Shown here piece after piece: positions 52,001-64,000 of a DNA stretch of 64,000 bases. The notes under the pieces were generated by a model that did no database searches, had not been told where the DNA came from, and saw nothing but the letters and a program-made list of their open reading frames with translations. How positions within the stretch are numbered: position 1 is the first letter of the stretch; each line of letters opens with the position of its first letter. Position numbers and translations under genes: made by a program. The stretch lies in NCBI GenBank assembly GCA_021817785.1, contig JAKAFY010000005.1, forward strand, positions 553 to 64,552, written 5' to 3'. The stretch comes from a bacterium. Its GTDB lineage: Bacteria; Patescibacteriota; Microgenomatia; UBA10105; UBA927.

Positions 52001-55000
52001 TACATTTTTAATCTCCATACTCCTGAAGGCGGATCGAAATCAGGAAGTGGTTGACCCGCTATTTGCCGATCTAACGCGACAGATACGACTCTTACTCCCG
52101 TTTGATAAAGAGCCTGATGTACAACTTGCTACCATGCGCATGGTTCTTACGATTCTTCATGGAATCAAAGCCGGGGCGTTTCCGGCAGAGACGCTTGTGC
52201 GGTTTATCGGTGAAGCGGACGCCAATGTAAGTGGCGCATTCCGTGTGTTTGCATCATCCATCAAACAGCCTTCCGTACAGAACGTATTCATGCAGATGTC
52301 TGATGTAGTGGATGAGGCAAGTTCATTCCAGGATGAAATCACCATGCAAATGGCCATGTTATTTGAAATTGTTCGGTCAGGGGATATAGCGCATCTGCCC
52401 AAAGTGGCCACTACATTGCCCTCTGTATTGCAAAAATATCAGACGCGCACAGCAGGAGTGCCCATCGGTGATAACGCAGTAGGCTATGGCGCTGCCATGA
52501 CAAAAATACACACCCAGTTTGGACCAGATACTTTGAGGATGCGGGATGCGTCGCTTGAAATCATGCTCGTTCAAACCAATGAAAAGAAAGAGCGATTGGA
52601 AAACATTATCGATGACATGATCCGCGAATTGGGAGTACAGTCGAATAACCCATCGCAGCGGAAGCGGTATCAGCAGTTGTTCGTGAATATTTTGAGTTTT
52701 ATGTCGAGAAGTGATCAGCGAGCTACAAACCGTTTGAGCGCGAAAATAGCGCACGAAGTTGAGTTGCTTGACCATGCGTTAAACGATACAGTCGAGTCGC
52801 AAAAGATACTTGCGGAGATCGCAGTAGATGCGAAACCATTGCTTCCAACATTGTTTGCTACTCCTGCAGGAAGATCAGAAGTACGGGAAGCAGTGATACA
52901 ACAAACGGTTGATACAGTATTGCGCCGAAGGCTTCCGCTTGCCGCGTCGGATGATGAGGCAACGAAAAAAAATCCAACATATCCCCGATATACATCTGCG
53001 TTGAGAGAGTGGCACAACGCCGCATTGTTGTATATAGAGCATCAACATGGGGCTCCATCAGAAGCTATCGCAGTGCTACATGCGTTTCGGGATGCGGCGC
53101 ATGCAAATATCACAAATCCTCGGGATCGAGCACTTCGATTGATTCGGGAAGCGTATACAAAACGAAATAGTGACCCGGTCATATCTAGTGCCTTGACGCC
53201 GAAAGAACAGGATTTGTTGTTTGGTCATTATCTTTATTATTTATTTAACCAACAGGATCGTATCGCACAGTTCCCGACACTCGATAACGTAATAGGCAGA
53301 GATAATCTGGCGTTTGTGGGGAGTGTACGGAGAGATGATACTACCCAAGCAAACGCATTGGCTGCCAAACTCAAAACATCGCCTCTATTGTTGCAGCTTG
53401 ATAAAGATTTGGGCCCGATCGTCGCGGAATTGCAGGCAATAAAAAGTGCCGACACGACGTCGATATATGCCAACATAAAGTTTGGAATGGAGCAGCACTT
53501 TTCCATGACGGAGCGGTATGACCTCATTGTAAACCTGCTTGATTCGGATCAAGCGATATTTGATACGGCGATCAAATGGTTTACCGATAAAGGATTTGCT
53601 CATGTGAAGGAAGATTTCGGGACATGGGATGGCGGTGGAAGTAGTACGACAAACGCATCAGGTCATTTGGCACAGAATGCTGCTCCGGCGGCAAATGATA
53701 TCAACGCGCAAATTGCGAAGTTTGTGGGTGATATACAGGCCGCAGGGTACCCCGCAAACTATCCCGTGGTACTAAATGGAGTAGTACAGGATAAGTCCGT
53801 TGTTTTGAAGATTGATGTTTCTCGATTACAAGCTCAGCTAGAAAAGATAAGTACGGCGGCCAATCAAAGCTTTGATATTACGATTTCGTTAGGGAATGCT
53901 GAGGTGCTATTTGGAAGTATTGCTCGGTCAGGCGGCGTTACACGAATCAATCCCTACGATCGAAGTGGCGCGCGTACGATATCAAATGTAAGATTCGTGC
54001 TCCGACAACATATACAGTCTTTAGATCTTGCTCTTCGTGATAAGGCGAATGTGGATTTAGCTGTACTCAATAAGGTTTTATACGGTTTTCTTAGTAGTCA
54101 GACCGGCCCGACGGTGACGTTGACGCAGGACCAAGTTCTCCAGCTTATCGATGCCATGCGAAGCGAAATGAATCTTCAGGATGTGCCGGGACCTGTTAAA
54201 TTCGCCCTCGGAGCAGTCGGAATAAACGACAAAAGCATGGCGGCGATGACGATTGAGCCGAAGTTTTCAAACGGTATATGGAGTGTCGCAATACAGTTGG
54301 CAAAATTTAGCTTTACCGCTGAAATTCATACGAGCCAGACATCCGATCAGGGGTTTGAGATAGCGGGCTTACCCGGCGCGCTCACGCGTTTTGTGACGCC
54401 GGCAGAGATGATGCGAAGCATAAACAAACGACTGGCCAGGCACGGCGTTTCACGTCCCATTTCAAAACTTGATATTCAAAAGGATGGGAGTATCGTCGCC
54501 ACGTTTGAAGGGCAACAATCACAGATCCCTCGAGCACAGGGACAAGTACGGACCGGATTTGCCATATCGCTTGGCGTGGCTGCAGCGTATATCCTCAAAA
54601 TTCCGGTTGTGTTGACGGCGGCACACGCGGTACAGTCCATACTTATCGCTGCTGGGCATATCACTATTCCGATTTATTCATGGTTCCCGGATATGCAGCA
54701 TCAGATTTCCGCACTGTTCCAACCAGTGACGCTCCAATACGCTCTTTCTCTCGTAGGTATATCGGGAGCACGACCAGCTCCGTCGAAGGTTCCTGACATA
54801 CTCTCCGGTCCGACGCATACGATGTCTATGGCGGATAAACGCCAGATGCTTTCGCTTATCCCGCAGGGATTCCTCCAGGCGATCGTGACGCAGGTGTTGC
54901 GGAAACCGGGAGCGACATTTGCCAATTTCCGTGCCACGGTAGATCGGTATCGCTTTGTGACCGTGATGTTTGATGACCATCGCCCTGGGTTTGCCGCGTT

Positions 55001-58000
55001 GCAGCAGAACGTTGCCAAAGGAAAAATCGATGCTGCGGTGCTTCGGCAGTTCCGTATGATTTTGACGGAGCGCATCCTGAATGCCTTTATGGCGCATACC
55101 GGCAATATGATGATGACGCCAAAGACACCGTTGTATCAGTACGTGTTTATTTCAATGGCACAAAATCGTTCGACATTTTTACGGTCACTTCGGGAGTTTA
55201 TCGAAAGTAATGCCGCGGGAGAGGTGATCCAGCAGACGCTGAGAGAATATAAGCTCGATGGAATACTTCCGTACCGCAGGACCGGCGATTATCTTGGATT
55301 TTTCGTCGGCGGTGATCCTACGCAACCGCTCGTTCTTGAGAATGTCGACGGTAAACTTGTACAACATACACCATCGAGCCCTGATATTTCGGATACGGTG
55401 AATGCGGCACCTCTCGGAGTAGAAATCGAACAGGCAATTTCTATGGATCCAATCACTCTTCGGGCGTGGCAGGATACGGATTCATTGCCGATTTATATCG
55501 TAAATGCGCCGCAGGGACCAGGCGTCGTATCGGTCATATCAGATAAAAAAGGCGGCATTCCGATCTCCGTACGGCCGCTTGCCGTACAGGATATCATCGG
55601 ACCAGACGAACCAGCCCCCATAGTAACCGTAGCATCATTAACCGGGGATGAGATAGCCACGTTAAGTTCCCTTGCTCCGGATACGTATATCACACTTACG
55701 GATCTTGGCGCACATTTATCGCGGGCCGACCTGGATCGTATGGCCCGTGGGGAAACGATATATCTCCATGGCGCTTTGCACTCAGTCGTCCAGATGTCCC
55801 AGGAGATGAAAGAAGAAGGAGGGGTAGTCCATCAGGTTACCGCCGTGGATCTATCGCCGTTTAGTCTCATAAGTAAAGTGTTAAGTAATCTCCCGGATGC
55901 GGTGAACCTTCAGTCCGGATTCCAGGATGTATTGTCGTACTGGTACAAGCTGGTTGTTGCAGAATTTCGGAGTGTGGGACTTCATGCAGGACTCTTTGGT
56001 GGGGATGGTATGCAGGCGATCGGTAAACTTGATTCGCTTGACCAGTTGGTCGCGTATATGGATTTTGAGAAGTTGTTTGAGCAGGCACTTCGTGACGCAA
56101 AAGACGGCAAGATTTCTCCAAACGCTGCGGCCGCGGCGGCGGTGATTTTGGATCCGAAAAACGGTATCGCCGGTAACATCCTTGTGAAGGTCGGCTTCGT
56201 CCAAACTGAGGGAACACTGCGGATACTGCAAGGCAGTACGGAGTTTATTTTTGATGAAAACCCCGACGATATTTTGGCGACGAGGAAAAAGTTCCAGCCA
56301 GTGGCAGGGGAGAGCTACGACTCGATCGTCGCGCTGAATGCAGCGGCAGCAAAAGATATACAGGAGCGCTTTGGTAACAAATTTGCTTCCCGTGGATTAA
56401 AGATCATCCAGCAGGGGCAGAATTATTTCCTGGTGCGTCAGAAAGAAGCACAAAAAATAACAGTAAGTGAGACGCCCGTGGTTATCCCGCAACGACATGC
56501 TTCGTGGTGGCAACGAATTATGGATCAGGGGAGGCGTGTGATTGGAGGCGTGTGGAATTTCATAAAGACGGAAGCGCTTCGTTTTGCGGTAAGTAGTGAA
56601 AAGGGAAGATTGGTGATATCCGTACCGGGATCATCGAAGCTTCCGAAGGGGTTTGAGAATCTGAAAACGGTGGAAAATCGAATACATCAGACTGCCCCGG
56701 CGTCGTATCGCGCAACGATTGATGCACATTGGACGGAAATCATGACAGCGATTTTTAGCGAGGAAAAACGCTATAGAAACGGGGATGACAGGGGACTAAT
56801 AAACGCCATCAAAAATGCGTTATGGAAATTTACCGATAGCAAAGACGACACAGAAACAGTACAGTTTTTGGCGAATGTCGTACAGGATTACCGTGGTCAG
56901 ACCGTCGGATCATCACAAACACAAACAAAACAATCAGCGCCCCAAGCTGTCAAAGCACAGCCGCAAGCTTCTACGACGTTGGCTAAGCCAATCGTGACGA
57001 TAAGGAATATCGGGCGTAAATATATGCCCAATAAACTTGCGGGTAAATACCATCACGATAATCAGGACGCTGTTCCCGAGAGCGTTAAATGGCATGGAAA
57101 TTTATTTCAACTAGCGGCAGACGGCGTGACACGTGACGAAAACGGGGGCATATCCAAAGAGAGTGGTGTGATTGCATCACAGGCTGTGCGATGGCTTCAT
57201 AATGAGTTGCTCTATCTTTCCGACTCCACGGCAAATATCTTCGCAAAAATTAAACGAGTGCTTGATGACGCGAATGCAAACATGTTGTATAGACCGGCTG
57301 GTGCGCTTGCAACGGTCGCATTTACGTATGTCGATAGCTCTAATGGCGCTGTGTACGGCGCACAGGTGGGGGACGCCACGTCGTATGCCATATCGCTCGA
57401 CACCAATGAAATATATCTTCTGACGGATACGAAAGTCCTCAAAAAGGGAAAGCCGTATGACGGACAGCGCGTGTATTCAGTCTTAAAAGACGGTCAAACA
57501 CTGTCATCGGTACAAGGAGATGAAGTTGAGTCGGCATTTGGCGATAATTCTGTTCTAACAAGCATCCGGAAGAATACATTGCCTTTTGGCAAATATGTCA
57601 TCATTACCGGTTCGGATCAGGTAACGAAACTTCTGGAGCCCTATCTGGTGAAGCGATCTGTTCCGAATAGCGACCTTCAGCGTTTTGAGGCGACGGGAAA
57701 GCTCAAAGATGAGCTCTATTCATTCCTTCGAATATTACCGGGAGCCAAAAAAACAATTCTGGATATATTGAGCGAATTCCAGGACGCAACCGGCTCGCAA
57801 GATGACCTAAGTGTGACGGCTGATGAAGTAGAGATACGCATGCCGTCTGCTTCGTCTACTCTGCGTTATGGTTTTGATGTACAGATGCCGCAGCTTCAGG
57901 AAGCGTATCCAGAAACGGTGAAATGGTGGAAGGATCGGATAGCCGCAGTTCGGAATTTTGTATCCCACGCCTGGAACACCTGGGGCTACTCGCCGCGGGT

Positions 58001-61000
58001 AGTGGCGCTCGGGGAGGATCTCGATGCTGCGCGAAAGACCTATGCCAAGAAGACGATTGTCGATGCGATGGTGGGCGAGGTGCGGATTGACGGCGATATG
58101 CTGTATGCGTCGGGATTCCGTCCGACAAACGGGTTGTACGGCACGACGGATACGCCGGTTCTCTGGATGATCAAACTGACCCCAAGTCAGCAGAAGTTGT
58201 TTTCCGGATTAAGCCAGGAAGAGCGCCATACGAGAGTCGTCCAGATGATACATAATGCTACCGAAGTGATCGTCGACCAGCATGGGTTCCAAGCCGACCG
58301 GCGTGTGTTTGCCGAGCCCATGCAGCACATCATGGCGCCATATGGAGTAGCCGGCATCAATCAGGTTGCGGTCGCGCCTACCTTGGGTGGCGGGGAGGGG
58401 AGCTTCTCCGGGAAAACATCATATCTCTATGAAACCATGAAAGCCCAGTTTGCTGATTTTTTCACCGGGCTTGCAGGCGTCGTAAATGTAGATGGTGTGC
58501 GATTTCGGTTTATCGGCCACTCGACCGGCGCGGATATCGTCGCGTCACTTCTCCATGACCGGCCGAATTACGTGAAACCCGGCACCGATTTCCTCCTCGT
58601 GTCGCCGTATGTCGAGACGTTTGAAAAACAGATCATTGCGTTTCATTACGCGCCGAACGACGTAGTGTGGGGACCCCTGTATCAGTTTGTGAATACACGG
58701 TATGAAAACGTCTTTGTGTCCGCGTTTCAGCGTTTTCTCATCGTTGCTGCACGGTTGACCGGGCTTGACCGCATCATCATAGACACGCGGTTAAGTGGTT
58801 TGGCGGGTGATCCGGCTGTTGCCGACGCCGCAAGTGTGCATGGCATATATCAGCAGGCGATCGAAGCTGCGATGCGTTGGTATAACGACGTCCTCACACA
58901 GAAGCCGAAGCTCGTATTGGATCAAACTGTGGAGGAGTTGCGAGCCCGAGGTGTCGAGATTACTACTGTTGCATCGTTTGACGGCGGAGATCATATCGTC
59001 AATCAACAAGAGACAGAATTTTTTGCCGAGGAACACAATATACCGATGAAGAATTTTCCCAACAGCGGCCACTATCTTCGTTCAGAAGACTGGCAGGTAC
59101 TCGGGGATGCGTACAATCATAGTAGCGACATACAGGAATACGTCGTGAAGACGCTCCTGACAACGGCAAAAGACGTAACTGTTGCACAGTGGGAAGTCGG
59201 GGATAAAAGTCTCCTCCAAAAATGCGCGGCAAACGGGTGTACGACCGTGGCTGCGGTCAACGCTCTTCCCAACGGGCGCGATTTCCAACCGGAGCTCGTG
59301 TTTGGACATCGGGATGCGGTGTCTAAAGATGGGTATGTATTTGTTGCCCGCGTCATGATACTCGGAAAACCGTATGTCATCGATTTTATGGCCGAGCCGG
59401 GGAAAGTGGTTATATTGCCGTGGGATATGTACCAGAAGATGTATGCATTTACGCCCTACGAGTCCCCAGATCTCGTCCCGTCGTTCGGCTTCCCAGTAGA
59501 TCAAGAAGCAGATCTCGCCCGAAAGTTTTGGCCGGAACTGAAGTCACGGCACACGTTGAGTCTGACGACTCTTACGTCGCTTGATCCCAATGTCACAGCG
59601 GCAAAGGCCATGACGTTTGAACAAGGAGTGAAAGTGTGGTTTGCCGCGGCAGTCGCAGACACCGAAACACCACTGATACAGGAAGAAGTCCAACCTTCAC
59701 AATCAGATTGGATTGCAGCCCTTGAAGAGCCGGAATGTTGGGCGATGGCGCCGGTCGCGTATGCACAAGGCCCGAGTGGGGGAGGAAAGCCATGTTCTGT
59801 ACAGGTCCGCGCGGCGTTGAAAGCGCTCCCGGCGCTTGGCATCGGATCGGTCGTAAACGTGTGGCACTACAGTAAGCAGTTTGTGGGGTGGGCCGGTCAG
59901 CTGTGGCAGGGGATATTTCGATTGTTATCGCAGAATGATGGTGGGTATGCAGCTCCGATAAATCAGATAAAAGCTGTTACAGGTGTCATACGTAGTGTAG
60001 GCACGACAGGTGCAATGCACTCTGCGCTCGATCAGGTGTCGCAAATTATTGATCCCATAGAGCGGGAATTTCCGTTTCCGAACGAAGAGATAAAACAGTA
60101 TACAGACGCGGATTACCGAAGTATGTTCGGAGGCACTCGAAAGCAATTTATCGCTGCATTTAATGATTTAACACAAACTCTTTTGAGAGTAGCACGTACC
60201 GATTCCAATGAAGAAGTGCGGCGAAGATCGACCATTATTCTTTCGTCAATGCAGCAAGTGCGTTATACGTTTGGTATGACGGCTCAGACATATACGCGGT
60301 ATAACTTTGATGAGTGGTACGGGGCGCTTGATAACGATATGCTTCGGTTGTTGCGTTTACTTACTGGATTGTGGGTAACCCGCGGTCAGGAAAAGGTTCT
60401 TGCCCAGAAAATGCTTACAGATCACGAAGTGCTCCGAAAAAAATATAATCTTCCCGCTGATGATCTCTACGAACTCAATCCCACAGAATATGCAAATAGT
60501 CTTGAGTCACTCAGGCAGAAGTATGATATATCGGTTACATCAATGCGGGAGCGTGATTTTAACGCAATTTTTACACCTGGAGATGAAGAACACGCTGCGG
60601 GTGGAGCGACGTTACCCAATGGATCAATAGTTCTAAAAGACCGCATCATGAATACGTGGAGGACGGATCCTACGAGTATGCATCTTTATGAACATGAATT
60701 GATTCACGCGATTCAAAAGAAACTTTATCCGGGATTGTCTCATGAAGAGCAAGAATACGAGGCATATGTCGCAGAAAGGTATTTAATTCATGAATTACAA
60801 CTAAGTCAAGATAAGGGGCTTGAGTTGTTTATGCGCGGTTTCCAGACATCAATTATTGCGCTATACGCGAGGCAAGGAAAAACGCCACCATGGGCTTCTA
60901 TTATTATTCCAAGGGATATTGAGTTTTTGGAGCCTGAACAAATGTTAAAAGATATAGAAGCGGAATTCCCTTCTCAACGATATCAATTTGACCGGCCGAA

Positions 61001-64000
61001 TTTGCCTGAACTTCAAGTTATTAATGAACAAACAATGGCCCGATGGGACGCGTTTTTGCAGCGCCTTCGCTCTCTGTGGCAGGGGATGAGGCTAGGAGAA
61101 ACACAGACGAGCACGGTAAAAGTAGATATTCAGAGTCCAGTAAGCGCATTATCAGCAAGTGTTTTTAGTTTGGCGAGGCTTACTACTGTTCCTTCTGATG
61201 CGACGCTATTGGCGAGTCCAAACTTTTTATCAACATTTCGTAACGATATACAAATAGAAGGATGGCCAGGAGATAGCTGGAAAGAAGCATTACGTCGGAC
61301 ATTGGCGCCGACGCGGTATAGAAATATACCATCCACACAATTGCCAGACTCACTTATTACTTATACATTACGTTCCTACGGAAGAGCAGATTTTGTTATA
61401 CCAACAGCGCCTCTCATTGATGAAAAAGGTATTCAGTTTCCTGTAATTCAACGGAAAGGGATCGGAGCGGCTCAAGGTAATATACAAATTTCCTCAGATG
61501 CATTTGGTGCCCCCGTGGAGAAACGACAGGACGTAACAACATACGGATTTACTGGTCAAATGTCATTTCAAGAGGATGCTCAAGTAACAAAGGAATGGGA
61601 AGACGTCGGGATGCGAGTCCGCAAGCCAATCGCGGCATTCGATTTAAATCAGGTATTTGCTCGATCGGTTACATCAGGGAAGGGAAGTGGAGCTTTGACT
61701 CCGGAATTGTTACAAAAAGAGGGGTTTGATATATACGGAAATCCTGTTATTGCGCTTTGGGCGAGACGGAATCCATATACCTTTCAGGATTTTATAGGAT
61801 TGACTGATGATATGCGTCGGCTTCCATCGCACCCGACTCAGCTTTCCAAAGACGCCCTCAGAGAGCGTTTGGATCAGTTTTTGCAAATCCAGGCATCATT
61901 TTTGCAATATGATTCTGATCCTGAAGCACGGAGGATTGCCTCATTACTGGCTCGGGGAAATGGAAGCGGACTTAACGAATGGATGAAATGGTTATCATCT
62001 AGATACGGAGAGCAGGAAGGGAACAAAGTTCTCCATGGGTTGGTTGATGGCGAACAACATCGTCAAAACAGAGATTTTGGAGTAGAGTATACCGATTTAG
62101 CTGATTTAGCACATCACAACTACGGATCATACGAACAAGCTCCGCGGATGGAGCAGGCCGAATTGGCGAAAGAGGTCATGTTTACATATTTGCCTATCGT
62201 AGAAGTGCAGGTCGCATTTAATCTAGCAAACAATAAACCATGGGATACAGATTTGGATACGGTAAACTCAAATTTTTTCCGCAACTTTTTTGCAGTGATC
62301 GATACTAAACCCGATGTGGCTAAAAGTGTCTCTCAATATTTTAAATTAGAGCCTATGTCTGAGTACATCGGGGGGAGTGGTCTGTACGGCATAAGTGATA
62401 GCTATTTTGTAAACGATTCGACACCTCCGGTTGTTGTAGGTGTGCCATTGAATATTGTGAGCGCTTTAGAGGAGAAATTGTATATGCAAACTATAACAAT
62501 AAATACGCTCAATTCTCTCAAAATACTGCCCTCCGAGTTTCTAACTAGAGTGTTATATAAGTCAATTTATGCGATATTTTCTATTGGCACGCATGGTTAT
62601 ATAGGGGTGATCCGTTTAGCTGATAGATTCCAATCGCAGAGTGGGAATATAGGACAAAAGTTATATAGTGCGTTTTTTCCGAATGGGAGGAATAGATACA
62701 CAGCGGATGCAAGACGGTATATACAAACATTAGGATCAACGCAGGCAGTCATTCGATTTGTCGTCGCCTCTCTTTCATCTTCAGATAACAATCAATTTAC
62801 AAACATGCCGTACAGGGCTATAGAATCTAACTTTCAGTATCTATTAGCAGTTAACGTTCGTGAACAATTGCATATACCAGAAGATAGTTATGACTCATAC
62901 CCCATTGCTGCCGAGGTTATGCGACTTACTGGAATTAATACACTCATAAATCAAATATACGAAGCGATTCCAGAACAAAGACCTGTTATTTTACGCGCCT
63001 GGCAACATGCATCTCAAGATCCTTGGTGGCAACCAGCCGTAGTCGGAGCAGAACGATTCTGGCAGAGTATTTTGAATTCAATAAACGATCAGTCATTACG
63101 GAGCACAAATAAACAAGTGATGGCAGTCGGGGAAATGACCGACCGTATCTTCGGCTTTTTCCGCTCTCTGTGGCAGGGGATAGTAAACCATTTCATGCCG
63201 GAACAGCAAGCCCCGTTTACCCAAAGAAGACCGCAATTTGTAAAACAATTGATTGAACAACAATATGCCATTGTTGTACGTCCTCCAGTGTTTGGTATAC
63301 ATAAATATCCACTTGAAGGGAAACCGCAATATCAGTTCAAACATTTTACGAGTACCGATGTTATCAAGTTAAAGCTTCAAGATGCCTCTGGTATTGTGAA
63401 AATTACGGATTTAGGTACTGCAGATGCTTCATTTTTATACGAAACATCTCGCGTCTGGAAAGATCGCGTGTTTGTAACAGGAATTTCTGCCTATAATTAT
63501 TCTCCAGTAGGCTTGCCGTCTCGTAATACACGGTATATAAGTGGCGAAGAAGCACAAATGGAGACGCTTTCCCAGCGCAATACGATAGCACACGGATCGC
63601 AAGACGTTATATTTGCTAAAAATACATTAAATTATGCCGTCGATCCACTGGGCACATTGTCTGAACTGTTTGAATTATTGAAACCAGGAGGTTTTATCGT
63701 TGTTGATAATTCATTTCCACCGACTACTATTTCCGGTCTTACTTCACAGCAGTATGGCGGCATGATCGCGTGGATGAATATGCACGGATATCGTATAGTT
63801 TCAAATTGGTCTTATGATCCTGTAAGCCGAACCAATCAAGTTAATAGTTTTATACTCCGAAAAACAACAGAGCAACCCCACTTGTCTTGGCCGCTCCAGT
63901 ATGGGCAACAGAGATTGGCACCTAATTCTTCAGTATCTATTTCATATGTCATTGATCCAAATATTCCGATTTTGCATAGTCAATCGATCTTTGATGGGAT
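28071..64000 (+). CDS. giant multidomain protein, N-terminal >=11,976 codons (3'-partial; ORF runs off the window)
   Basis: Frame (position mod 3 = 0) is open from the TGA at 27885-27887 to position 64000. The first ATG is at 28071 (MVFALSTFLIVW...). In-frame alternative starts are GTG 27891 and TTG 27972. Frame continuity was checked by hand at 35280, 45900, 52140, 60000 and 63960. No + strand frame-0 ORF appears in the supplied track, which is consistent with a single unterminated ORF. All minus-strand ORFs across these 36 kb are short. The domain-like motifs are listed separately in the findings. Confidence 0.85.
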   Translation, partial: MVFALSTFLIVWRVGQQRQTGDLRQFATGDVYQNCVGLSGLDLTICQETGVRPTQPPYIPPPSPTNAPPAATKTPDQICAAQPQNQQDQCYLNLRKPTATAYVVPPHVTFPPTPIPTDRVWCTLRCKGDAGCISGCSLGLPYSTPVPTVPTKVPTVVTLAPIHSISEGIGNGCSDPKLTADQRSKCLAAAVGNISVAPSPVSGNFSKSCQACVSVRGSVGACASACGLTSSVTPAPSLIASVPTLKVTPAPQVGARIGFGVGTGAFTIPIVTQASIVSTVMNLWNQYISHTTPTPAPAPLTATGGNSNVNASAVKPTTLIPGSGCSILPWDSNNCKNCPGGKWHPGWTASCDANPAPPANQNLSNNAPSTVPSPASEIAHPVNQSPDNLTIVPSTVPPPVVTPIVPTVPPNPGTSVTPAVTPIITPMPGAGLACSGSNVTVGNVAVGGQKYGPNGDVTRKCTYDPTTHETAWVECPGCKVTVGTPEVMAAYKAQNDAFDAQLNMLTQNILNCMSSGKDQVTCQAEYLYGLGKQSPAYLGLLQDQISVQIKTSEAQATYNQKMEQHDLCIAQHQDSPNQCRGYEQAALMALQQVGYDTTDAKTMAALTTAYQTYIAQKASNLFLSAEVAYAGCVAQQKQDAGINCSQYQKNATDAMTYGGTPTAEQRAARLLRYSNYQKATDIWNTPNSVVCPTVDCDPEQRKQQRVAALNMDPNDAQLAHDNWFANIAYSLQYGTVGTIERVGKILATKPSDCKDTASCLDVLKNTLTGEQYAQVKTRVDQLALADINNAPDTTALSFAKDHKNDPMFKNVDTNDINAVRLAIDNSLPQNLRRASLAHLAQPASSGGTTAASTETPLAKAYAAYRNDLSLDASTRTLLGKPSSDPSLTVAEANFYTTQQNNLNTLCSHVSVQDCALYSAQFKAGTIVPSDAAAAYQKSSLSFSFRIPTFLTTSQSTKKVGAGKSGTVTVTTPLSKVQTGSIDINIAPVQWMDSAFNWIQRQQIALTPFRPGDYAQKNTEAQLVLLATDPAKQKAVFAALDQTADYRKFAASLHASNVDPHEAYITQQLTKFYQNEGYLQNAGKFAPTTVDNSKQDYVTLVMRGDVNVSSAVSSIGLGKMVGGVYANTLTAVGDTVLSPILKLTHLTPTIKVANLVSGGVTPEENQTADTVVTALIRTNSAAWDAYVQQKSKDPEYLAWAQNNPKDSSIVAFAKWQYAQSLALTENMKAGGYELSSAQDLFTKSPTWLTDGVLAGKINIGDIKSILSASQQSVTTDLNRNLTILETNNTNLPTSSYQARRQAAFAQLQTSVLNAQADALVKVYQESQNTPEVLAALQSKLTAQHITTDPLVYQQQQLKAYLLNPDTTFLLGSGGTTVDVAGIMDGTYDMAAASRAYNDLNKRPLESFVFAINKFEKGSYLQGQQLLSDPNSSLYDKGRAVVMMTAKPVGTVLMLAAPPLRVLQIGVNAVTAADVLAIGGEALGFQMTGSSAADTAVACTLRPGMDAAGCATNFGMMVFAGWSTLSSVNAVNSIAETAMIKSGQNVGFVERFMNSNKLLSGLVPDGDKALIQAAALRNGVIPATADNIAALESAVAKAYAPVAHNAFAEGARNALGTAVFGSAAIQACSQEGLNADCLSRASLAFLSLSRTILPSQVVSNTNALAGQTVMRADQLTNAALAGLSCSAAALGKGSLDDCITTAMMSGMTFAGEAVQKAQSSSNGLTLKNPFAAKELAIKDLSLLENMKATDPPIIMDGTPVNFLDRTVAADSVRARLVQATIESRIIIAQGSALAAGFKTLPAADQTIAQHAAVTAGDAWNSLFTDTGALRPGVADQVMGARQALTIASSELARETALLTDPRNGAQQAVDRLLGVRSKDAAALADFHTAREAYLELARSAEYDPATGVLRNGETLAIAEQRLARAGETLSLVNASRGEIWYATHLNQTRDALAVINRQIDIETLQQQLLLDQAKLPDVRRLAREQADAAQIHLRTLEQTNASPEVRAIAQEALRLATERLSAAEDVATHIQNPADIALYRTERANALSTLQARAETIQGEMTLLAAGQKAAQTFGGRLAIAVLGLPDQPTPFAELIGRTPEQIVQARTTAITEVGKRSLSNIEDLVNETIDVMRASSDGTITRERAIEIAMDELSATDAKGNTKIYTDALAQAKEALMKQGITNETTLARESMRIARTVADQFVANNEAIRAALAKGESPDVAFAIRQSTASKVSTAIVNFIEQNTVGRIKVYQIRQENKAMLSQLRVALKAEYKPLVEKLANINNDRGGISLSQETKPGANDALIAYDTHKSVKPGKLVVDDIKLTDTGRKAGLTEKDVTFLKDNLQSIQGVQGYTAHTEQVDYILAFLESLGDGNARRIYGAVMGLGKTDFVMPATTLLQAQLSDQTQVIVFPEDKLMNQYLGGNSQKMLDLFKAKIDPKGEGLVLVVDPSKPPSAEAIAKAKVIITTRDIAFLLDATDASGLAMRAKWRGAFIQSDEGHWTLNATESFRTSFGKQTQIMQTDSGKMKRVAIASVEQLQSVRELIDLAKTGKLTDAEVRRNADKTGSFTDPTEQEILREWLQKKKNAGQLPPALEAALQAGSVADMRAKITEFFDTNASARTGPLGAEISVIGKLADLFAATPKVEYGAASFDRNGTLVDMIAPLDMTKATGRMYQGELEQLLYNTIGAEIVGKNIDLTNLVSNSQSRDINFGLLMLEASGFAIYTGTPELIAPLYKSAYGIDLTQYGLNAHEVVTKQINTGLASQQSQVFQSTDDALTNRLHKGEPVAIVNLRDTLYRTNESAFETIQRHLDTGDRLYVAKAAGGFEEYVRLADGSMQRVAVYTDKTGINASIANHITEPIVVMYEFGAHTGVDVSLPDNTRELVLTDTNSRINETVFDQGVKRVRPDTALVDVVHVGGDGTIESVYRQLDVQQRQDMALAEVQFKETLLRNSVDQLLSRLNAVQTTTAGGITQGVDYAARLKALQDQWQVTKDLSYDLSTHNISAQDKLQRTLDQVKSMYGEIYASIQSDVTLRAAFAVSAGDTKDLAINLQPDPKGVHKLSAVSSLADVVTYINKSTDPKVIADAGVTFTERGPSAEAVTADARNVQPTNIIADGDAITAETIAAENQARQDALAKNSGNGNNPTLPGSGPQTPGGSGPVQPGGAGGGPANNGGGGTTNTGGGGGTTQSNGGGSTQNTGSVNTGSNTTGPTTVSQMTSQARQAVIRAAVDTSGTQPVVRAGISPQQTLQALAAATIEAQNLRNNPFSRIRILPIARTLERQEQAELALADALQGPVQAAIEQELGVTLSGSGLPAIASARDSAVSYLAALAIGDADVAQSHLTDLNKAIENVAAAQGSAYTGRQTADIAPHIVAAFLPPSAVTAKPIIQTISGQINTNTVSNPSTWRATIGIMWSGIKHYGFNPNPLTLFTIFGSTTNRWDVLGQVGGWIMFRIAPLFVPGGQFVAVPLLAYDGVRLITYPFRALARFIFTRPMIRDIVIGKSVAQLALRWHLNQTMLNILAGSRNGFFESYVNAVPGWPKGTTFFKGLIGTFTWASRFQAMWGYDAFRLLRRYTQQINHIADTDMPLHQLPVTQPNYWDTNGFLLGFVPRALVNATPRNNLFGYLLTRWLVPIVITSLVAPLLMLIPVVGPYIAVMVVAIIISMPHSYDSHRLWHEGGWQHADIWNTKKGHITPWASWGATVTITVPAPQQFSKGVLEAGHTLVRGATITVTRRDGSVETAILDTVSNDRIAANNSWTIRSAADNSVIGWVTQGDITVNMSPAIASQPVVPIPSGGLSAADIDAFAEALTGPQVQTLFQREIAFLPLGCSECTDFVKQSINTHLAAAQQKIVAGDLAGAIAQLDQALHEIDMHVKNHTGGPVNTMLFNLVRYVILRHQAALYTALGDTKHAADVMAIARSYRVKALIEIDTKIHAYNAGDTRFEAINDALSYYTAQREKDFSDILLMQDANQAQQALDDLTAEISNRPTNPTLWDRVTAMAARILVKQPDPLAGYATEIANANAHIAARRNPPVRHEARVGDTYRFAPSAYPANVNALTGASIGGDTTSKILIPGLGLGLYASFDNGRWQLHHQDRFKSGVFINTTPVPVNKQGPLSSGDTIVIGDVRLVVTIDSDNSLMIHIEQLVSGQPAQHPVVHKNDTQHFAANDFTTPDQVVTLGINIYSTIRFDPGQAPSIQPHHAHVFRNSGSWIITSADTQATGTIRRPDGSEYPLQGLTGLHDGDILYLGSDVVITVNVDPTTHDLTLLETTIGDSVEVARNKTEARAKLQAIIDLGKNPAGYDNAKLSAYVSDLQTVADGLAQADQAVFGTNTTALSGQLHQAALELGQLVVGYHTRVYNNNAPFFDFSRVQQMEDDVNTIPELTKEEKAQVWDGFEKTVYRDYIGSVYGSIAGMETEMYGSSHSLPPSDLDSMSLADLQREKTMAEGTFAVTNDAYKEFLRDKNRFETNRKAIQAKARAMADAMNTAFAKGQMTKNIRVEVSQEGIIQLIPADNSPLLSLRIGLDTPQEYISDQRDDGAVHIILGTTGLSVAPAILNIESRNVGSGVGNEALSIIETVVKRAGFGGMLVQGNTSVLSFGFWSTNEYWVADTKQNLDELQRYSRARQMYKIFGKALPKPTQEVSRREQINRLQAQIFGWLALARSINMSSDELRTSMSPDDLQKLVIGKTNIYIAGALVPDGLPLAWQEPIILALTDLEAGVPPLGMYDTSVRVLNRPEVHNALIQLIGAIKAQTDGGGEYLKALGEAIVAGANNPKEMAKLLNNLTSYWTTPAKILKDSSLPGRQQFIDTYGPVIAKGESGNQFADALYTHYSALKSEEQDALAALFADDGTMRTPVAHAIQTLKPSYAQKRREDSLTVAARDALLPEIKTLHAFTFLSDDEIKNEIPTDITNQVVEGAYVMDTNVSGELSALAPQQQAVVRNGFDVRADIVRDAWAKSDISPFGALFDTNVLFSSLVSQIADLHEADAVSQFRAALSAFPSDLYASMRARDTVNKPDAYQIQAEIHAKYVAATIRGKISSSFPMQEQRLLAFLNNGLLENNNHPPFPNLESLLKYLLIGDVPSDQQFDEASLRERVASMDTGVTGPLMDTLAKAIQQMLPLLDGIVARSEPLPAVNIAPGTTTTTHVALLRAMHDYNDNAPRSMRFTPASDFTLRPIEDQVNEFLTFVENRTGQWTRQTSPREGKVGVANTFNGMTFAEGKAPLIIGTSKSNTIWFDSAVAKSVAEKHAEIYLELHSDSPNKLWIRAVSDTTPITIFDHRGEKLRTQSGAVLGDGYTIQLGSDVVLSVKYDNYSYQFTLTPTKVGEAITADALDQLLAKLIPGYDTQKLPPEQVTAIRKAVYGLVPAGAAAESLDAALKQPAVQEFLTTLQTNINALTKAQLPNVQAIIGNVQTDYQTVLARLPIFIRVLGSVNIADVNNVTIALTSMNAAIQVAETNPQLSALAVASSDRNSFVEDQSVINLLRGIILNAFGTHAIIVSELSPDTYSSLVTSLGEYVWSLAVKTPSLDGFWDADRGAILIQKALDEKDNRTPVLPEFVELTNQAVGSDKVLYMEVYAEEILTNREILYFLDLARTRILAQQQKLEKYNADWRRLQLAAEQDPAIKIGKELEKLYPLESNALMMQSAGGSLQLDEANRAISYITGVPIEEVQKGNYPKGTKPDLTPEVIRSRLVAHGDYDHVLSETEIGRLMIAEDEKDHYDIMRTRTPRFAPVGGTLDQNPLVNLLFGLTGKRYRIPADNAALTEEDVVVAFERNYDFLVQDYALPTLISSSGKPDVYFNALMVVAQENGVEVKLVSDPSNPQPQARGLFHGTPTNKTIYIPTLDSNSNRELAHELVHALQFIKHPGMSRLMREFEAYLISDYPKNRVPKVGYLRKFLQIIADTVGPTYVAVGQPIPWEFQPVDVSNSAPEGSDISTPVALDQLLAKLIPGYDKLKKDQQTAVRKTIYGLVPGISFGENIDDALQQPAVQEFLTTLQTNIGALTKAQLPNVQEIIGNVQTDYQTVLARLPIYALVMSSANVTDVPKALIAAQKAIDEVEHSPHLSVGAQTAASASVFTDDMKFSVTENVMRASLGSQGYTGTAEDIALIHQQYGISDDELNTLITALWTYVWNRESREIQIRDQLNSILSDASPEFKALPEFERDDIIEALRISYPDNTTLAAVATDFSESGKRAKELHALVTLLAQKTSINDYVLTSIMLHTPQNPETWSTLYDTSIKVSALLEQVSESNRQDQSKQAYQVLLQAIKLIGNDQTVWSVMQREADRFINVIAILAAKRSGGITPKDAQALYTALRIPVAQKTKYDGLLNKSDLSVLGAPEADSKWAAFDALAVVYFRKVPEAPSEDPRVQEIRGLYGRFVRSLSTVQGVYVIKMSSEWAAVLSLLKGGSIVYVPNGALDTKFEPKAVVDAATFQSGIREAVDYMNFPSKEAYARAKITVWILDKMLSVEQYYASKNTLSVLQQKSGELGQIDQQISALLRTDLSSGTTQESLQQIYAALYALLPADSGFPADDTSEIDALISSINTFGQPKEVRQVVTHLATTFGIPDEQIKQVVDQVVANLKDSTAAGTVPAWKAIEDALNAKPKFAKDVLPLIKNQFAALQKAQADVSRIQALLTIYARTLISIPLGKIAEAPTVLSQEQKAIAALEESSSGWVSDATTIDEFLADNTRTGTTNEVRIQTGLKDTKILQPKDDKTPNAFGISLTNYTRIVSDIGQYLWKKGEDVRTKAILAMVEPYDAQRDASYISRIEQAAKTNGLQIKVVGYIAKGAQGYVYLVQLLNAKQVNIPEYVAAKADDLAQKLGVNDAPHEYELAGKLRQAEQTGEFDISDPSKLYTVDPYAVDAKNKVLFEELVLTQKWDDESQDAKISRAMQFGHRTYLVRQAGFYNQDKIGDYLADINNKLHFFDSSSYGTNPKLALDANSRFITRIVEALYPASGATVENIFSAQFTNDTNRLNVLLQSRLFVSLPKIIQYNILLLLGKISSNSGQNLNSAAAFKELLLDMLSVTANNHIDSKFIPAELHGEYQQQAIIHRFSRFDNENILGMAGITIEQGANAEDKLLISNIVQSPSLNLIYSWHDFNVGVPYEKYYAGIFINLTTQEKIDHIIGLDLSQFDLSPEDYAVMRVIQWHAQYVRYGFMMTGHPDVNNASAMNPSESAVAQQLRTYGVIKVLKKMGSRMELEAAQGHQQAVDKELLPSMRAFQDAFVQNIFGGDKRKLNKQDFPLTPEQVKKDIDSYVPNTANTVSTQLTALISDATPLKTDEQKAQIKAVVDATLAEMDAVTLPQDISALKPAISVIYGDGTSLVQLPDFLKRLPVFIRELVAATPKEMEKLLIGTNTAVTAMKNFPIGFNNPAGTTEDAFVKDVKNRTFVRDMLVDGHLYPANYSGIPITDAIIEQIHTDYGLTSTEFDGVVTAILHYLYTPTEEGGTESILGASLISQFGITADADKQAVQNSLRDGLTGVTLSGPLVTALSDPKSAPSQFTGTVIKELRADGATAPAISRILPTILWVYDHAAADKKPLVATTLIPKINEVDAANAIMWKTFVDGNATEQYFIDTGSVVVGTSFDTVLSSLLPDQAADAHSKVVNAYLRYARIKHGSRVTTELQSFLGYVTQPEHVPMPPTAPQVFKDMQKTVEESPSQTTAYEVQAINQLASLYRTDLTVKRTGGAEGKAPMVEVNGKELLPIAGHMYRYIYKLDDTHVLKFDMGGQNESELELEALNDNVRAVSPILGWGIASDGSVFLIEEYSDVVISQSDNTQLRGDIQGIIELWNSAYVNSSVAEQQAFLHEYGLQSADEINQLEQIVKVDEQIHLDDFAMASQNKPESGQIGRGRISHRLQLIDFGQNSVRSGYAPYLRSFTHLQEIVDKIVADRKSGSVGGEVSALATQAWDAKNEAWVDAAIEALSHEGFTDWNGLLVSYFRAYRGPKDEMLTPKQVEDAVNHYEPTFLISILLKADRNQEVVDPLFADLTRQIRLLLPFDKEPDVQLATMRMVLTILHGIKAGAFPAETLVRFIGEADANVSGAFRVFASSIKQPSVQNVFMQMSDVVDEASSFQDEITMQMAMLFEIVRSGDIAHLPKVATTLPSVLQKYQTRTAGVPIGDNAVGYGAAMTKIHTQFGPDTLRMRDASLEIMLVQTNEKKERLENIIDDMIRELGVQSNNPSQRKRYQQLFVNILSFMSRSDQRATNRLSAKIAHEVELLDHALNDTVESQKILAEIAVDAKPLLPTLFATPAGRSEVREAVIQQTVDTVLRRRLPLAASDDEATKKNPTYPRYTSALREWHNAALLYIEHQHGAPSEAIAVLHAFRDAAHANITNPRDRALRLIREAYTKRNSDPVISSALTPKEQDLLFGHYLYYLFNQQDRIAQFPTLDNVIGRDNLAFVGSVRRDDTTQANALAAKLKTSPLLLQLDKDLGPIVAELQAIKSADTTSIYANIKFGMEQHFSMTERYDLIVNLLDSDQAIFDTAIKWFTDKGFAHVKEDFGTWDGGGSSTTNASGHLAQNAAPAANDINAQIAKFVGDIQAAGYPANYPVVLNGVVQDKSVVLKIDVSRLQAQLEKISTAANQSFDITISLGNAEVLFGSIARSGGVTRINPYDRSGARTISNVRFVLRQHIQSLDLALRDKANVDLAVLNKVLYGFLSSQTGPTVTLTQDQVLQLIDAMRSEMNLQDVPGPVKFALGAVGINDKSMAAMTIEPKFSNGIWSVAIQLAKFSFTAEIHTSQTSDQGFEIAGLPGALTRFVTPAEMMRSINKRLARHGVSRPISKLDIQKDGSIVATFEGQQSQIPRAQGQVRTGFAISLGVAAAYILKIPVVLTAAHAVQSILIAAGHITIPIYSWFPDMQHQISALFQPVTLQYALSLVGISGARPAPSKVPDILSGPTHTMSMADKRQMLSLIPQGFLQAIVTQVLRKPGATFANFRATVDRYRFVTVMFDDHRPGFAALQQNVAKGKIDAAVLRQFRMILTERILNAFMAHTGNMMMTPKTPLYQYVFISMAQNRSTFLRSLREFIESNAAGEVIQQTLREYKLDGILPYRRTGDYLGFFVGGDPTQPLVLENVDGKLVQHTPSSPDISDTVNAAPLGVEIEQAISMDPITLRAWQDTDSLPIYIVNAPQGPGVVSVISDKKGGIPISVRPLAVQDIIGPDEPAPIVTVASLTGDEIATLSSLAPDTYITLTDLGAHLSRADLDRMARGETIYLHGALHSVVQMSQEMKEEGGVVHQVTAVDLSPFSLISKVLSNLPDAVNLQSGFQDVLSYWYKLVVAEFRSVGLHAGLFGGDGMQAIGKLDSLDQLVAYMDFEKLFEQALRDAKDGKISPNAAAAAAVILDPKNGIAGNILVKVGFVQTEGTLRILQGSTEFIFDENPDDILATRKKFQPVAGESYDSIVALNAAAAKDIQERFGNKFASRGLKIIQQGQNYFLVRQKEAQKITVSETPVVIPQRHASWWQRIMDQGRRVIGGVWNFIKTEALRFAVSSEKGRLVISVPGSSKLPKGFENLKTVENRIHQTAPASYRATIDAHWTEIMTAIFSEEKRYRNGDDRGLINAIKNALWKFTDSKDDTETVQFLANVVQDYRGQTVGSSQTQTKQSAPQAVKAQPQASTTLAKPIVTIRNIGRKYMPNKLAGKYHHDNQDAVPESVKWHGNLFQLAADGVTRDENGGISKESGVIASQAVRWLHNELLYLSDSTANIFAKIKRVLDDANANMLYRPAGALATVAFTYVDSSNGAVYGAQVGDATSYAISLDTNEIYLLTDTKVLKKGKPYDGQRVYSVLKDGQTLSSVQGDEVESAFGDNSVLTSIRKNTLPFGKYVIITGSDQVTKLLEPYLVKRSVPNSDLQRFEATGKLKDELYSFLRILPGAKKTILDILSEFQDATGSQDDLSVTADEVEIRMPSASSTLRYGFDVQMPQLQEAYPETVKWWKDRIAAVRNFVSHAWNTWGYSPRVVALGEDLDAARKTYAKKTIVDAMVGEVRIDGDMLYASGFRPTNGLYGTTDTPVLWMIKLTPSQQKLFSGLSQEERHTRVVQMIHNATEVIVDQHGFQADRRVFAEPMQHIMAPYGVAGINQVAVAPTLGGGEGSFSGKTSYLYETMKAQFADFFTGLAGVVNVDGVRFRFIGHSTGADIVASLLHDRPNYVKPGTDFLLVSPYVETFEKQIIAFHYAPNDVVWGPLYQFVNTRYENVFVSAFQRFLIVAARLTGLDRIIIDTRLSGLAGDPAVADAASVHGIYQQAIEAAMRWYNDVLTQKPKLVLDQTVEELRARGVEITTVASFDGGDHIVNQQETEFFAEEHNIPMKNFPNSGHYLRSEDWQVLGDAYNHSSDIQEYVVKTLLTTAKDVTVAQWEVGDKSLLQKCAANGCTTVAAVNALPNGRDFQPELVFGHRDAVSKDGYVFVARVMILGKPYVIDFMAEPGKVVILPWDMYQKMYAFTPYESPDLVPSFGFPVDQEADLARKFWPELKSRHTLSLTTLTSLDPNVTAAKAMTFEQGVKVWFAAAVADTETPLIQEEVQPSQSDWIAALEEPECWAMAPVAYAQGPSGGGKPCSVQVRAALKALPALGIGSVVNVWHYSKQFVGWAGQLWQGIFRLLSQNDGGYAAPINQIKAVTGVIRSVGTTGAMHSALDQVSQIIDPIEREFPFPNEEIKQYTDADYRSMFGGTRKQFIAAFNDLTQTLLRVARTDSNEEVRRRSTIILSSMQQVRYTFGMTAQTYTRYNFDEWYGALDNDMLRLLRLLTGLWVTRGQEKVLAQKMLTDHEVLRKKYNLPADDLYELNPTEYANSLESLRQKYDISVTSMRERDFNAIFTPGDEEHAAGGATLPNGSIVLKDRIMNTWRTDPTSMHLYEHELIHAIQKKLYPGLSHEEQEYEAYVAERYLIHELQLSQDKGLELFMRGFQTSIIALYARQGKTPPWASIIIPRDIEFLEPEQMLKDIEAEFPSQRYQFDRPNLPELQVINEQTMARWDAFLQRLRSLWQGMRLGETQTSTVKVDIQSPVSALSASVFSLARLTTVPSDATLLASPNFLSTFRNDIQIEGWPGDSWKEALRRTLAPTRYRNIPSTQLPDSLITYTLRSYGRADFVIPTAPLIDEKGIQFPVIQRKGIGAAQGNIQISSDAFGAPVEKRQDVTTYGFTGQMSFQEDAQVTKEWEDVGMRVRKPIAAFDLNQVFARSVTSGKGSGALTPELLQKEGFDIYGNPVIALWARRNPYTFQDFIGLTDDMRRLPSHPTQLSKDALRERLDQFLQIQASFLQYDSDPEARRIASLLARGNGSGLNEWMKWLSSRYGEQEGNKVLHGLVDGEQHRQNRDFGVEYTDLADLAHHNYGSYEQAPRMEQAELAKEVMFTYLPIVEVQVAFNLANNKPWDTDLDTVNSNFFRNFFAVIDTKPDVAKSVSQYFKLEPMSEYIGGSGLYGISDSYFVNDSTPPVVVGVPLNIVSALEEKLYMQTITINTLNSLKILPSEFLTRVLYKSIYAIFSIGTHGYIGVIRLADRFQSQSGNIGQKLYSAFFPNGRNRYTADARRYIQTLGSTQAVIRFVVASLSSSDNNQFTNMPYRAIESNFQYLLAVNVREQLHIPEDSYDSYPIAAEVMRLTGINTLINQIYEAIPEQRPVILRAWQHASQDPWWQPAVVGAERFWQSILNSINDQSLRSTNKQVMAVGEMTDRIFGFFRSLWQGIVNHFMPEQQAPFTQRRPQFVKQLIEQQYAIVVRPPVFGIHKYPLEGKPQYQFKHFTSTDVIKLKLQDASGIVKITDLGTADASFLYETSRVWKDRVFVTGISAYNYSPVGLPSRNTRYISGEEAQMETLSQRNTIAHGSQDVIFAKNTLNYAVDPLGTLSELFELLKPGGFIVVDNSFPPTTISGLTSQQYGGMIAWMNMHGYRIVSNWSYDPVSRTNQVNSFILRKTTEQPHLSWPLQYGQQRLAPNSSVSISYVIDPNIPILHSQSIFDG
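44082..44366 (+). repeat. intragenic duplicated module, copy 1 (~285 bp)
   Basis: Encodes ALDQLLAKLIPGYDTQKL...AVQEFLTTLQTNINALTKAQLPNVQAIIGNVQTDYQTVLARLPIF. The core 44233-44366 is about 90% nt-identical to 46051-46190. Confidence 0.85.
45909..46190 (+). repeat. intragenic duplicated module, copy 2 (~282 bp)
   Basis: Encodes ALDQLLAKLIPGYDKLKK...AVQEFLTTLQTNIGALTKAQLPNVQEIIGNVQTDYQTVLARLPIY. It includes the 25/25 identical run ccgcggtgcaggaattcttaaccac. Confidence 0.85.

Follow-up and report, generated by a model that had tools for sequence, protein, structure and literature searches.

A probable zincin-type metallopeptidase module present twice in a giant reading frame of a Gottesmanbacteria-like bacterium

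The window analyzed here, a stretch of 64,000 nucleotides from a patescibacterial assembly (GCA_021817785.1, contig JAKAFY010000005.1, positions 553 to 64,552, forward strand), contains a giant open reading frame (ORF) carrying two copies of a module with an HExxH motif. The downstream copy (copy 2) is an intact representative of a so far undescribed domain family, found largely in Patescibacteria, whose conserved residues and predicted fold suggest minimal metallopeptidases of the zincin (gluzincin-like) type.

Two modules in one giant reading frame

The carrier, the two modules and the elements of copy 2 are as follows.

27972..64000 (+): giant ORF with both modules, at least 12,000 aa and at least 36 kb, 3′ end beyond the window
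45324..45872 (+): copy 1 module, matched by the independent hidden Markov model (HMM) described below; HELVHALQ at 45651, then REFEAY; more divergent, with all invariant residues kept
60324..60950 (+): copy 2 module as delimited by the HMM envelope, corresponding to aa 10752-10960 when numbering begins at ATG 28071
60441..60455 (+): K-Y-N-L-P block closing the first N-terminal helix, its Tyr being invariant family-wide
60534..60638 (+): sheet of three predicted strands (58-61, 81-83 and 89-92 in the AlphaFold2 model, assigned by DSSP), containing the A-G-G "edge strand" block
60693..60716 (+): HELIHAIQ, the putative HExxHxxQ active-site motif, on helix 103-121
60753..60767 (+): E-Y-E-A-Y, on the next helix, 127-137

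No stop codon interrupts the frame of the giant ORF between 27885 and the window end (open from 27888), and with the first ATG (28071) as residue 1 it encodes at least 11,976 aa. Because this ATG falls inside a hydrophobic anchor, TTG 27972 or GTG 27891 is the likelier start codon. A 5,470-aa protein from another assembly (P0003) is 99.98% identical to aa 4596-10064 of the giant protein, and the long reading frame is therefore reproducible. P0003 was considered as an independent giant homologue and rejected, since at this identity it represents the same gene, and it was left out of independent tests.

A preliminary description of this DNA had placed HELIH at 60693-60707 and EYEAY at 60753-60767, and translation confirms both positions; the in-frame translation of 60600-60860 (WRTDPTSMHLYEHELIHAIQKKLYPGLSHEEQEYEAYVAERY) is identical to the peptide quoted there. 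It had also reported a first copy ~15 kb away, which is indeed found in the same frame, 15,042 nt upstream of copy 2, the two modules being ~5,000 aa apart in the giant protein. Exactly two HExxH sites occur in the giant ORF versus 0.15 expected from its composition. Both copies are recovered by an independent HMM, built from 141 domains with everything derived from the window left out: copy 2 scores 110.9 bits (E 5e-27) and copy 1 reaches 52.1 bits (E 5e-9), where E values refer to 1.84e9 proteins. No third or degenerate copy was found in the giant ORF with this model, or in any frame of the window. Both copies retain the H, E, H and Q of the motif, E-x-E-A-Y and the upstream Tyr, that is, all family-invariant residues, and in the predicted fold the elements follow one another as in zincins, in agreement with the metallopeptidase-like character that had been claimed.

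The resemblance between the copies is domain-level and extends well beyond the short motif. BLASTP aligns ~90 residues from HExxH on, with 29% identity. When two ~220-aa proteins, retrieved as database matches to the copy 2 region, are added to both copies, the similarity reaches ~110 residues further upstream, to [RK]-K-Y-x-L-P and an A-G-G strand-like block; copies and homologues align over ~170-190 aa, including the K-Y-x-L-P block ~85 residues upstream of HExxH. Their DNA is alike only in stretches of 18 nt and 15 nt at the two motifs, which confirms the nucleotide divergence noted earlier. The proposal of an old module duplication within the gene fared less well. When 144 domain instances are ordered by BLAST score, copy 1 comes only 137th in the list for copy 2, and copy 2 comes 71st in the list for copy 1; the best matches of copy 2 are modules of other giant proteins (P0042 and P0055) and that of copy 1 is the module of the syntenic P0118. 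Identity between the copies is 22% over match columns, the median of copy 2 to other members being 27%. In neighbor-joining trees, for which the Kimura distances were saturated and therefore capped, not one of 100 bootstraps groups the copies as sisters, and the intragenic-duplication reading is therefore unsupported. Sequence comparison thus points to distant paralogues within a family of 242 clusters. Because the distances are saturated, a very ancient duplication keeps its place among the candidate histories, and independent recruitment, fusion or recombination of separately evolved modules would be as likely.

The core of copy 2 (60363-60920) was modeled with AlphaFold2 from 96 sequences, a four-sequence version having given a poor sheet region. 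The model (predicted local distance difference test 90.0, predicted template modeling score 0.87) comprises, in order, three N-terminal helices (including 40-53), the three strands listed above, helix 103-121, helix 127-137 and two more helices. HELIH corresponds to residues 111-115, while E131 and E133 lie on helix 127-137. The metallopeptidase (MPTase) core has been defined by the zincin element order (PMC5512222), which the model reproduces, with HExxH on a helix and three strands, together with the N-terminal helix 40-53, before this active-site helix. From what is known of zincins, H111 and H115 are predicted to bind Zn2+ and E112 to act as the general base activating a water molecule. 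The third ligand would be a glutamate of the E-x-E-A-Y helix, E131 or E133 and probably E133, which is favored because it is in register with the [FL]-E-x-E-A segment of DUF4157 proteins. The three-stranded sheet would, through its edge, hold the substrate in an extended form. The data show that the domain and its family are real, that catalytic-type residues are conserved, that the predicted secondary-structure elements come in a zincin-like order and that the locus is conserved; from there we infer zinc binding, peptidase activity, the assignment of the third ligand and self-processing.

An unannotated family and its carriers

A family profile built from the two window copies and the two ~220-aa proteins was searched exhaustively against 1.84 billion representatives, yielding 242 representatives (50% identity) at E<=1e-3, of which 186 at E<=1e-10. 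At the sequence level, the family signature reads K-Y-x-L-P ... HExxHxxQ ... E-x-E-A-Y. Across 144 domain instances, its first block is conserved at 100% (Y), 95% (L) and 98% (P), the motif at 100% (H), 99% (E), 99% (H) and 99% (Q), and the EYEAY block at 99% (E), 93% (Y), 97% (E), 99% (A) and 85% (Y). The complete signature is preserved in 137 of 151 proteins.

This family is not annotated. All 104 matches of a profile search in a 5.8-billion-protein collection are devoid of Pfam domains, the named ones being "hypothetical protein" from "Patescibacteria group bacterium" or "bacterium". PHROGs and PADLOC returned only sub-threshold matches for module and family, the commonest PHROGs match being a weak one to phrog_87 metallo-protease. 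No match was obtained among PDB sequences and profiles with the 4- or 96-sequence profile, apart from spurious antibody and YaxA matches. Among the 96 members, the recurrent weak Pfam matches are mostly to zincins (Peptidase_M91, DUF6782, BSP, SprT-like, M78 and Tox-MPTase4), with single weak matches to eCIS_core and M76. A phage, plasmid or virus origin was considered and rejected, as no relatives of the family were found in 50,697 phage records, 72,556 plasmids and 2.9 million IMG/VR contigs.

Reference-genome carriers comprise Shapirobacteria, Woesebacteria, Saccharibacteria, an unclassified Patescibacterium and two metagenome-assembled genomes (MAGs) labeled Gammaproteobacteria. The two contigs from "uncultured Gammaproteobacteria" MAGs (L007 and L011) reflect either a family extending beyond the candidate phyla radiation (CPR) or mis-binned contigs. 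L007 is a single ORF of >3,687 aa with both ends open; its second site, HENIH, was examined as a possible family member and rejected. In the saccharibacterial homologue (L008, ~3415-3990), an in-frame stop separates pieces of 141 aa and 172 aa, each matching the family HMM; pseudogenization, recoding or a mistake in sequencing might explain this.

The module occurs in several forms. Most members are standalone proteins of ~200-260 aa (typically ~220 aa), 98 of 102 having neither a signal peptide nor a transmembrane segment. Tandem proteins of ~420-450 aa contain two copies, both intact in P0004 and P0035; in P0007 and P0060 the second copy is degenerate and has lost HExxH (HNFEHGIL; DEQFIRAMQ), which suggests pseudo-enzyme partners or a dimeric mode of action. 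Mid-size carriers of 600-950 aa often possess one N-terminal anchor, with the module at the extreme C-terminus, while in giant proteins the module is internal; across carriers it is located at 26% to 99% of the protein length. The neighbors of standalone genes are variable (toxin-antitoxin, insertion sequence, NUDIX), and no conserved partner gene was seen in the contexts inspected, and the overlapping ORFs downstream resemble neither one another nor the module or the giant protein. In L018 (3191-6644), a standalone member lies 4 nt downstream of a gene for a 924-aa VirD4/TrwB-like coupling ATPase (DUF8128 plus a weak T4SS-DNA_transf match), the only hint of a link to conjugation or type IV secretion.

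The window opens with the 3′ end of a 23S rRNA gene and a 5S rRNA gene, followed by genes for AlkZ-like, S1, RadA, glycosyltransferase, DUF2298, Rho and LysM-M23 proteins. Two tRNA-Ala genes separate the LysM-M23 gene from the giant ORF. The features flanking the giant ORF and its other recognizable segments are the following.

23772-25571: Rho gene, upstream of the LysM-M23 gene
25820..26920 (+): LysM-M23 peptidase gene (Pfam), with Rho the conserved neighborhood of module-carrying giant genes
27045-27118 (+): tRNA-Ala(cgc)
27188-27259 (+): tRNA-Ala(ggc), then a terminator-like hairpin (GAAGCCCAAGGGCTTC plus a T-run)
28041..28106 (+): N-terminal hydrophobic anchor (FAQILPLILLMVFALSTFLIVW), then a Pro/Thr/Cys-rich region of ~500 aa
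38964-39080 (+): internal hydrophobic segment, aa 3632-3670, long enough for a hairpin
54558-54614 (+): internal hydrophobic segment, aa 8830-8848, marginal
63408-63711 (+): class-I S-adenosylmethionine (SAM)-methyltransferase-like region (Methyltransf_31/12/11/23, E 5e-4 to 9e-3, under cut-offs)

A "tmRNA" called by ARAGORN within 26944-27118 (+) overlaps tRNA-Ala(cgc); as Rfam recognizes only tRNAs here, it is probably a false positive. The closest named homologues of RadA (76-80% identity) are from Candidatus Gottesmanbacteria and Patescibacteria, and identical Rho proteins are encoded in GCA_021842445.1 and GCA_027424485.1. The carrier organism is a Gottesmanbacteria-like CPR bacterium.

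Pfam searches of the whole giant ORF returned nothing but the weak methyltransferase-like signal, in which an LLKPGGFIVV block is present and motif I is degenerate (ITDLGTADAS). With these internal hydrophobic segments, copy 1 and copy 2 might face different sides of the membrane. On either side of copy 1, a ~190-aa unit is duplicated at the protein level (~44082-44648 and ~45909-46490, +), with 71% identity over 63 aa, then 41% over 137 aa. Further internal duplications relate aa 4181-4350 to 5230-5390 and aa 6002-6139 to 7312-7451. A 304-aa ORF on the opposite strand (35285-36199, -), wholly within the giant ORF, is most likely a spurious shadow ORF. A region of ~130-170 aa with C-x-x-C precedes the module in P0042 (1875-2007), P0055 (5083-5211) and P0064 (113-241); before copy 2, the window (~60000-60320) shows only motif-level likeness to it, in the last ~100 residues.

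Large carriers in related genomes include P0127 (4,099 aa), P0118 (3,013 aa), P0137 (2,009 aa) and P0046 (1,687 aa). Their genes adjoin SIMPL genes, which lie downstream in L016, L017, L022 and L023, and mostly also LysM-M23 genes, with or without Rho, a TPR protein often being encoded nearby; LysM-M23/Rho neighbors also flank P0127, P0118 and P0137. The locus is thus conserved and its giant gene varies several-fold in length. By BLAST, these carriers have essentially the module alone in common with the window ORF, along with the N-terminal anchor; comparable single anchors are present in P0055, P0127, P0118, P0137, P0046, P0078 and many 600-950-aa carriers, and some carriers have extra common regions in subgroups. 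Pfam scans of 13 other carriers gave only an FHA domain, a weak CHAP and a weak PRTase-CE match. The FHA domain (P0046, aa 1045-1107, 25.6 bits, over the Pfam cut-off) stands just after the module, and the weak CHAP-like region (aa 2878-2971) is at the C-terminus of P0118. In L016 (22300-22656, 118 aa) and L017 (19026-19400, 124 aa), a small ORF with an N-terminal hydrophobic segment abuts or overlaps the stop of the giant gene, and the two have no BLAST similarity to each other.

Possible roles of the module

The function that we favor, at somewhat less than even odds, is that of a zincin-type Zn-dependent endopeptidase whose job in the carrier is the endoproteolytic processing of the giant precursor. 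By analogy, the module would cut this precursor, in cis or in trans, into functional fragments at the cell surface. Such a role is proposed because analogous peptidase domains in giant proteins have been given it, namely PVC-metallopeptidase (PMC3482391), the MPTases of polyvalent proteins (PMC5512222) and the peptidase domains of Omnitrophota giant proteins (bioRxiv 10.1101/2023.11.21.568195). Multiple peptidase domains interspersed in giant proteins are a published hallmark of processing peptidases (PMC5512222; PMC3482391; bioRxiv 10.1101/2023.11.21.568195). The effector or processing activities suggested in the preliminary description are, on such analogies, plausible.

Several observations weigh against this function. 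Pfam gives no curated-threshold match for the window copies, the family consensus or the 96 members, and NCBIfam matches to the module and family are all sub-threshold. Foldseek found no significant match to a solved zincin in the PDB (best E ~1), nor did the BFVD structure search return any significant match (best E 0.076). Aligning the family with ten DUF4157 proteins by hhalign gives a probability of 34-36% and an E value of ~4e-4 over only 20-21 columns. No cleavage sites are known in the giant protein, and the membrane topology around copy 2 is ambiguous, the segment at aa 8830-8848 being marginal. Standalone members cannot be cis-processing domains of giant proteins, and the C-terminal position in 600-950-aa carriers suits a payload or toxin domain better than a releasing peptidase.

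With the same fold and chemistry, the module could instead be an effector- or toxin-type protease that cleaves proteins of other cells (the episymbiont host, competitors) or of the envelope and not its own carrier. On this view, the giant protein would display several enzymes at the surface as a weapon or adhesin, while standalone genes would be orphan cassettes. We regard this as the main rival, possible but rather doubtful. The module lies at the extreme C-terminus of many 600-950-aa single-anchor carriers, as in the layout of polymorphic toxins, and PVC-metallopeptidase is sometimes a terminal toxin (PMC3482391), but both window copies are internal and hundreds of residues follow the module in most giants. 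Signal-less standalone copies are common, like orphan toxin cassettes, and in L018, L019 and L020 they are followed by overlapping small unrelated ORFs, as variable immunity genes would be, although the comparison of downstream ORFs revealed no conserved immunity-like partner. The best recurrent weak Pfam match is to Peptidase_M91/NleD, a type III secretion system (T3SS) effector protease, Tox-MPTase4 is also matched, and P0118 combines the module with its weak C-terminal CHAP match; yet Pfam scans detected no secretion or trafficking domains and no RHS or filament repeats in the carriers, and the locus lies among housekeeping genes, not in an obviously variable island.

An unlikely possibility is that of a zincin-derived domain with a housekeeping or regulatory role in the cytoplasm (for example a site-specific regulatory protease of ImmA/IrrE type, or a non-peptide amidase), merely captured by the giant proteins. 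This would fit the 98 of 102 standalone members without export signals and the pairing of the module with FHA, typically an intracellular signaling domain, in P0046. Similarly, the top BFVD match is an IrrE N-terminal-like domain (probability 0.97, TM-score 0.39, non-significant), phrog_87 metallo-protease is weakly matched, and copy 2 would be cytoplasmic, together with the methyltransferase-like region, if aa 8830-8848 spans the membrane. However, M78 matches in Pfam are negligible (2 of 96, best E 0.039), no adjacent HTH/XRE repressor gene was seen in the contexts inspected, the neighborhoods of standalone genes are not conserved, and a cytoplasmic role does not account for the module being the only island conserved across anchored giants. 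It is very improbable that the domain is catalytically dead or no metalloenzyme at all, HExxH...E being structural or a chance occurrence in a helical domain. While non-catalytic versions do exist, as shown by the tandem second copies of P0007 and P0060 that lost HExxH, and no solved zincin is matched significantly in fold, H, E, H, Q, E and E are retained almost without exception in 144 domains of ~25-30% overall identity, as is typical of catalytic residues, and both window copies keep all of them. Chance is further disfavored by the expectation of 0.15 HExxH sites in the ORF and by the detection of the domain independent of motif context (E 5e-27).

An extended form of the processing function, which we consider improbable, can be envisaged in Microgenomatia. 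Giant, hypervariable surface proteins, encoded at a fixed chromosomal locus (TPR / SIMPL / giant gene / LysM-M23 / Rho), would form a system specific to the CPR, with the module as its constant "releasing peptidase". Held by a single N-terminal helix, these proteins would be cut by their own HExxHxxQ domains into fragments for host attachment or attack, the standalone cytosolic genes being orphan or trans-acting. If true, the system would be a functional counterpart, specific to its lineage, of the processing of MARTX, polymorphic toxins and extracellular contractile injection system (eCIS) effectors, in bacteria without those delivery machines.

CPR/Patescibacteria are abundant, tiny and host-dependent, and their host-interaction machinery is obscure as most of their large surface proteins have no recognizable domains. 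With CPR genomes of ~1 Mb, the giant ORF probably represents several percent of the genome. The two modules are its only regions, over at least 36 kb, that several libraries tie to a chemistry, and the module is almost the sole element common to syntenic giant proteins of related genomes. An active peptidase would establish a new MEROPS/Pfam peptidase family of 242 clusters, none annotated, offer a handle on whether giant bacterial proteins get cut, a question left open by the giant-gene literature, and supply a sequence marker for such loci in other CPR genomes. Should the family prove to be just a remote branch of DUF4157 that plays its customary role, these findings would amount to a useful annotation without surprise.

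Comparison with known systems

The nearest known analogue, and by sequence a possible distant relative, is PVC-metallopeptidase, now DUF4157/eCIS_core (PF13699), which has been described with an "HExxHxxQ-E" signature, three strands and three helices, most versions acting as releasing peptidases and some as C-terminal toxins (PMC3482391). Ten DUF4157 proteins were retrieved from plasmids, a consensus sequence serving only as the probe; five of them were confirmed as PF13699 (E 1e-25 to 5e-32), genuine members scoring 90-110 bits. The HExxHxxQ signature and the downstream Glu are identical in both groups, as is the arrangement of three strands, HExxH helix and Glu helix. Both are embedded in large multidomain proteins, sometimes twice per protein, and the proposed role, a releasing peptidase and sometimes a terminal toxin, is alike. 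E-x-E-A follows the motif in four of the ten retrieved proteins ([FL]-E-x-E-A after HELTHVVQQ) versus 97-99% of the family. A greedier hhalign alignment puts the strands in register, with low confidence. However, the PF13699 model (gathering score 22 bits) misses the window copies (E<=1) and the consensus (E<=10), and matches only 1 of 96 family members (E 0.0023). The family also differs by an extra three-helix N-terminal region with the invariant K-Y-x-L-P, by a single Q instead of QQ, by an HExxH-to-Glu linker of 15-17 residues versus ~30-40 after the second His in the four ExEA-bearing DUF4157 proteins, and by its CPR-centered distribution; no eCIS/PVC tail-sheath, baseplate or AAA+ genes are found in the window, L016, L017, L022 and L023. 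Filing the family under DUF4157 was rejected, given the hhalign probability of ~35%.

Polyvalent proteins of phages and conjugative elements contain MPTases whose minimal zincin core definition fits the model of copy 2, and which are interspersed, in one to five copies, in giant multi-enzyme polypeptides (PMC5512222). The two modules ~5,000 aa apart and the weak, motif-I-degenerate methyltransferase-like region, the only other recognizable region of the window giant protein, bear a possible likeness to this layout, and there are non-significant BFVD matches to ART-PolyVal and "large polyvalent protein-associated" entries; the other non-significant top matches, besides the IrrE-like one, were Peptidase, SprT-like and M48. 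Unlike polyvalent proteins, the giant gene is chromosomal, among Rho, RadA, S1 and rRNA genes, with no phage, plasmid or IMG/VR relatives; the carriers possess an N-terminal membrane anchor, and no ArdC-N, SNF2, ART or primase was found in Pfam scans of the giant ORF and 13 carriers.

A similar likeness links the giant ORF to the Omnitrophota giant proteins, which are also huge, membrane-associated and mostly unannotatable, belong to ultra-small host-dependent bacteria, and combine SAM-methyltransferase-like regions with embedded peptidase domains (C39, S8) proposed to cut the precursor (bioRxiv 10.1101/2023.11.21.568195). The phylum differs, and the domain is here a zinc HExxH domain versus Cys and Ser peptidases; in addition, no glycoside hydrolase or SecA-like domains were detected by Pfam in the giant ORF. 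In the same survey, Patescibacteria are not among the phyla rich in proteins of at least 10,000 aa (bioRxiv 10.1101/2023.11.21.568195).

In Peptidase_M91 (NleD) and M78 (ImmA/IrrE), too, a small domain combines HExxH and a Glu further downstream with a short sheet. M91 is the best recurrent sub-threshold match (6 of 96 members, best E 1.6e-3), and against the family consensus it spans the sheet through HExxH (E 0.055; 14.2 bits versus a cut-off of 25). M78, the family of the IrrE-like top match in BFVD, gave the two matches mentioned above. All these scores are under the curated cut-offs, and the family has neither a T3SS context nor an adjacent repressor gene. To our knowledge, HExxHxxQ with ExEAY, and K-Y-x-L-P, are not hallmarks of the M91 and M78 families. 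With polymorphic toxin systems, the carriers share the anchor and, in mid-size proteins, the C-terminal module; they differ in the internal position of both window copies, in the lack of RHS or filament repeats in the Pfam scans and in having downstream ORFs that are mutually unrelated.

Collectively, zincin chemistry, the fold type and the occurrence of peptidase domains inside giant proteins are already known. What is new here is the family itself, with its 242 unannotated clusters, its own N-terminal subdomain and signature and its CPR-centered distribution, together with the role of the module in Microgenomatia, where a hypervariable locus for giant proteins keeps it as its conserved island.

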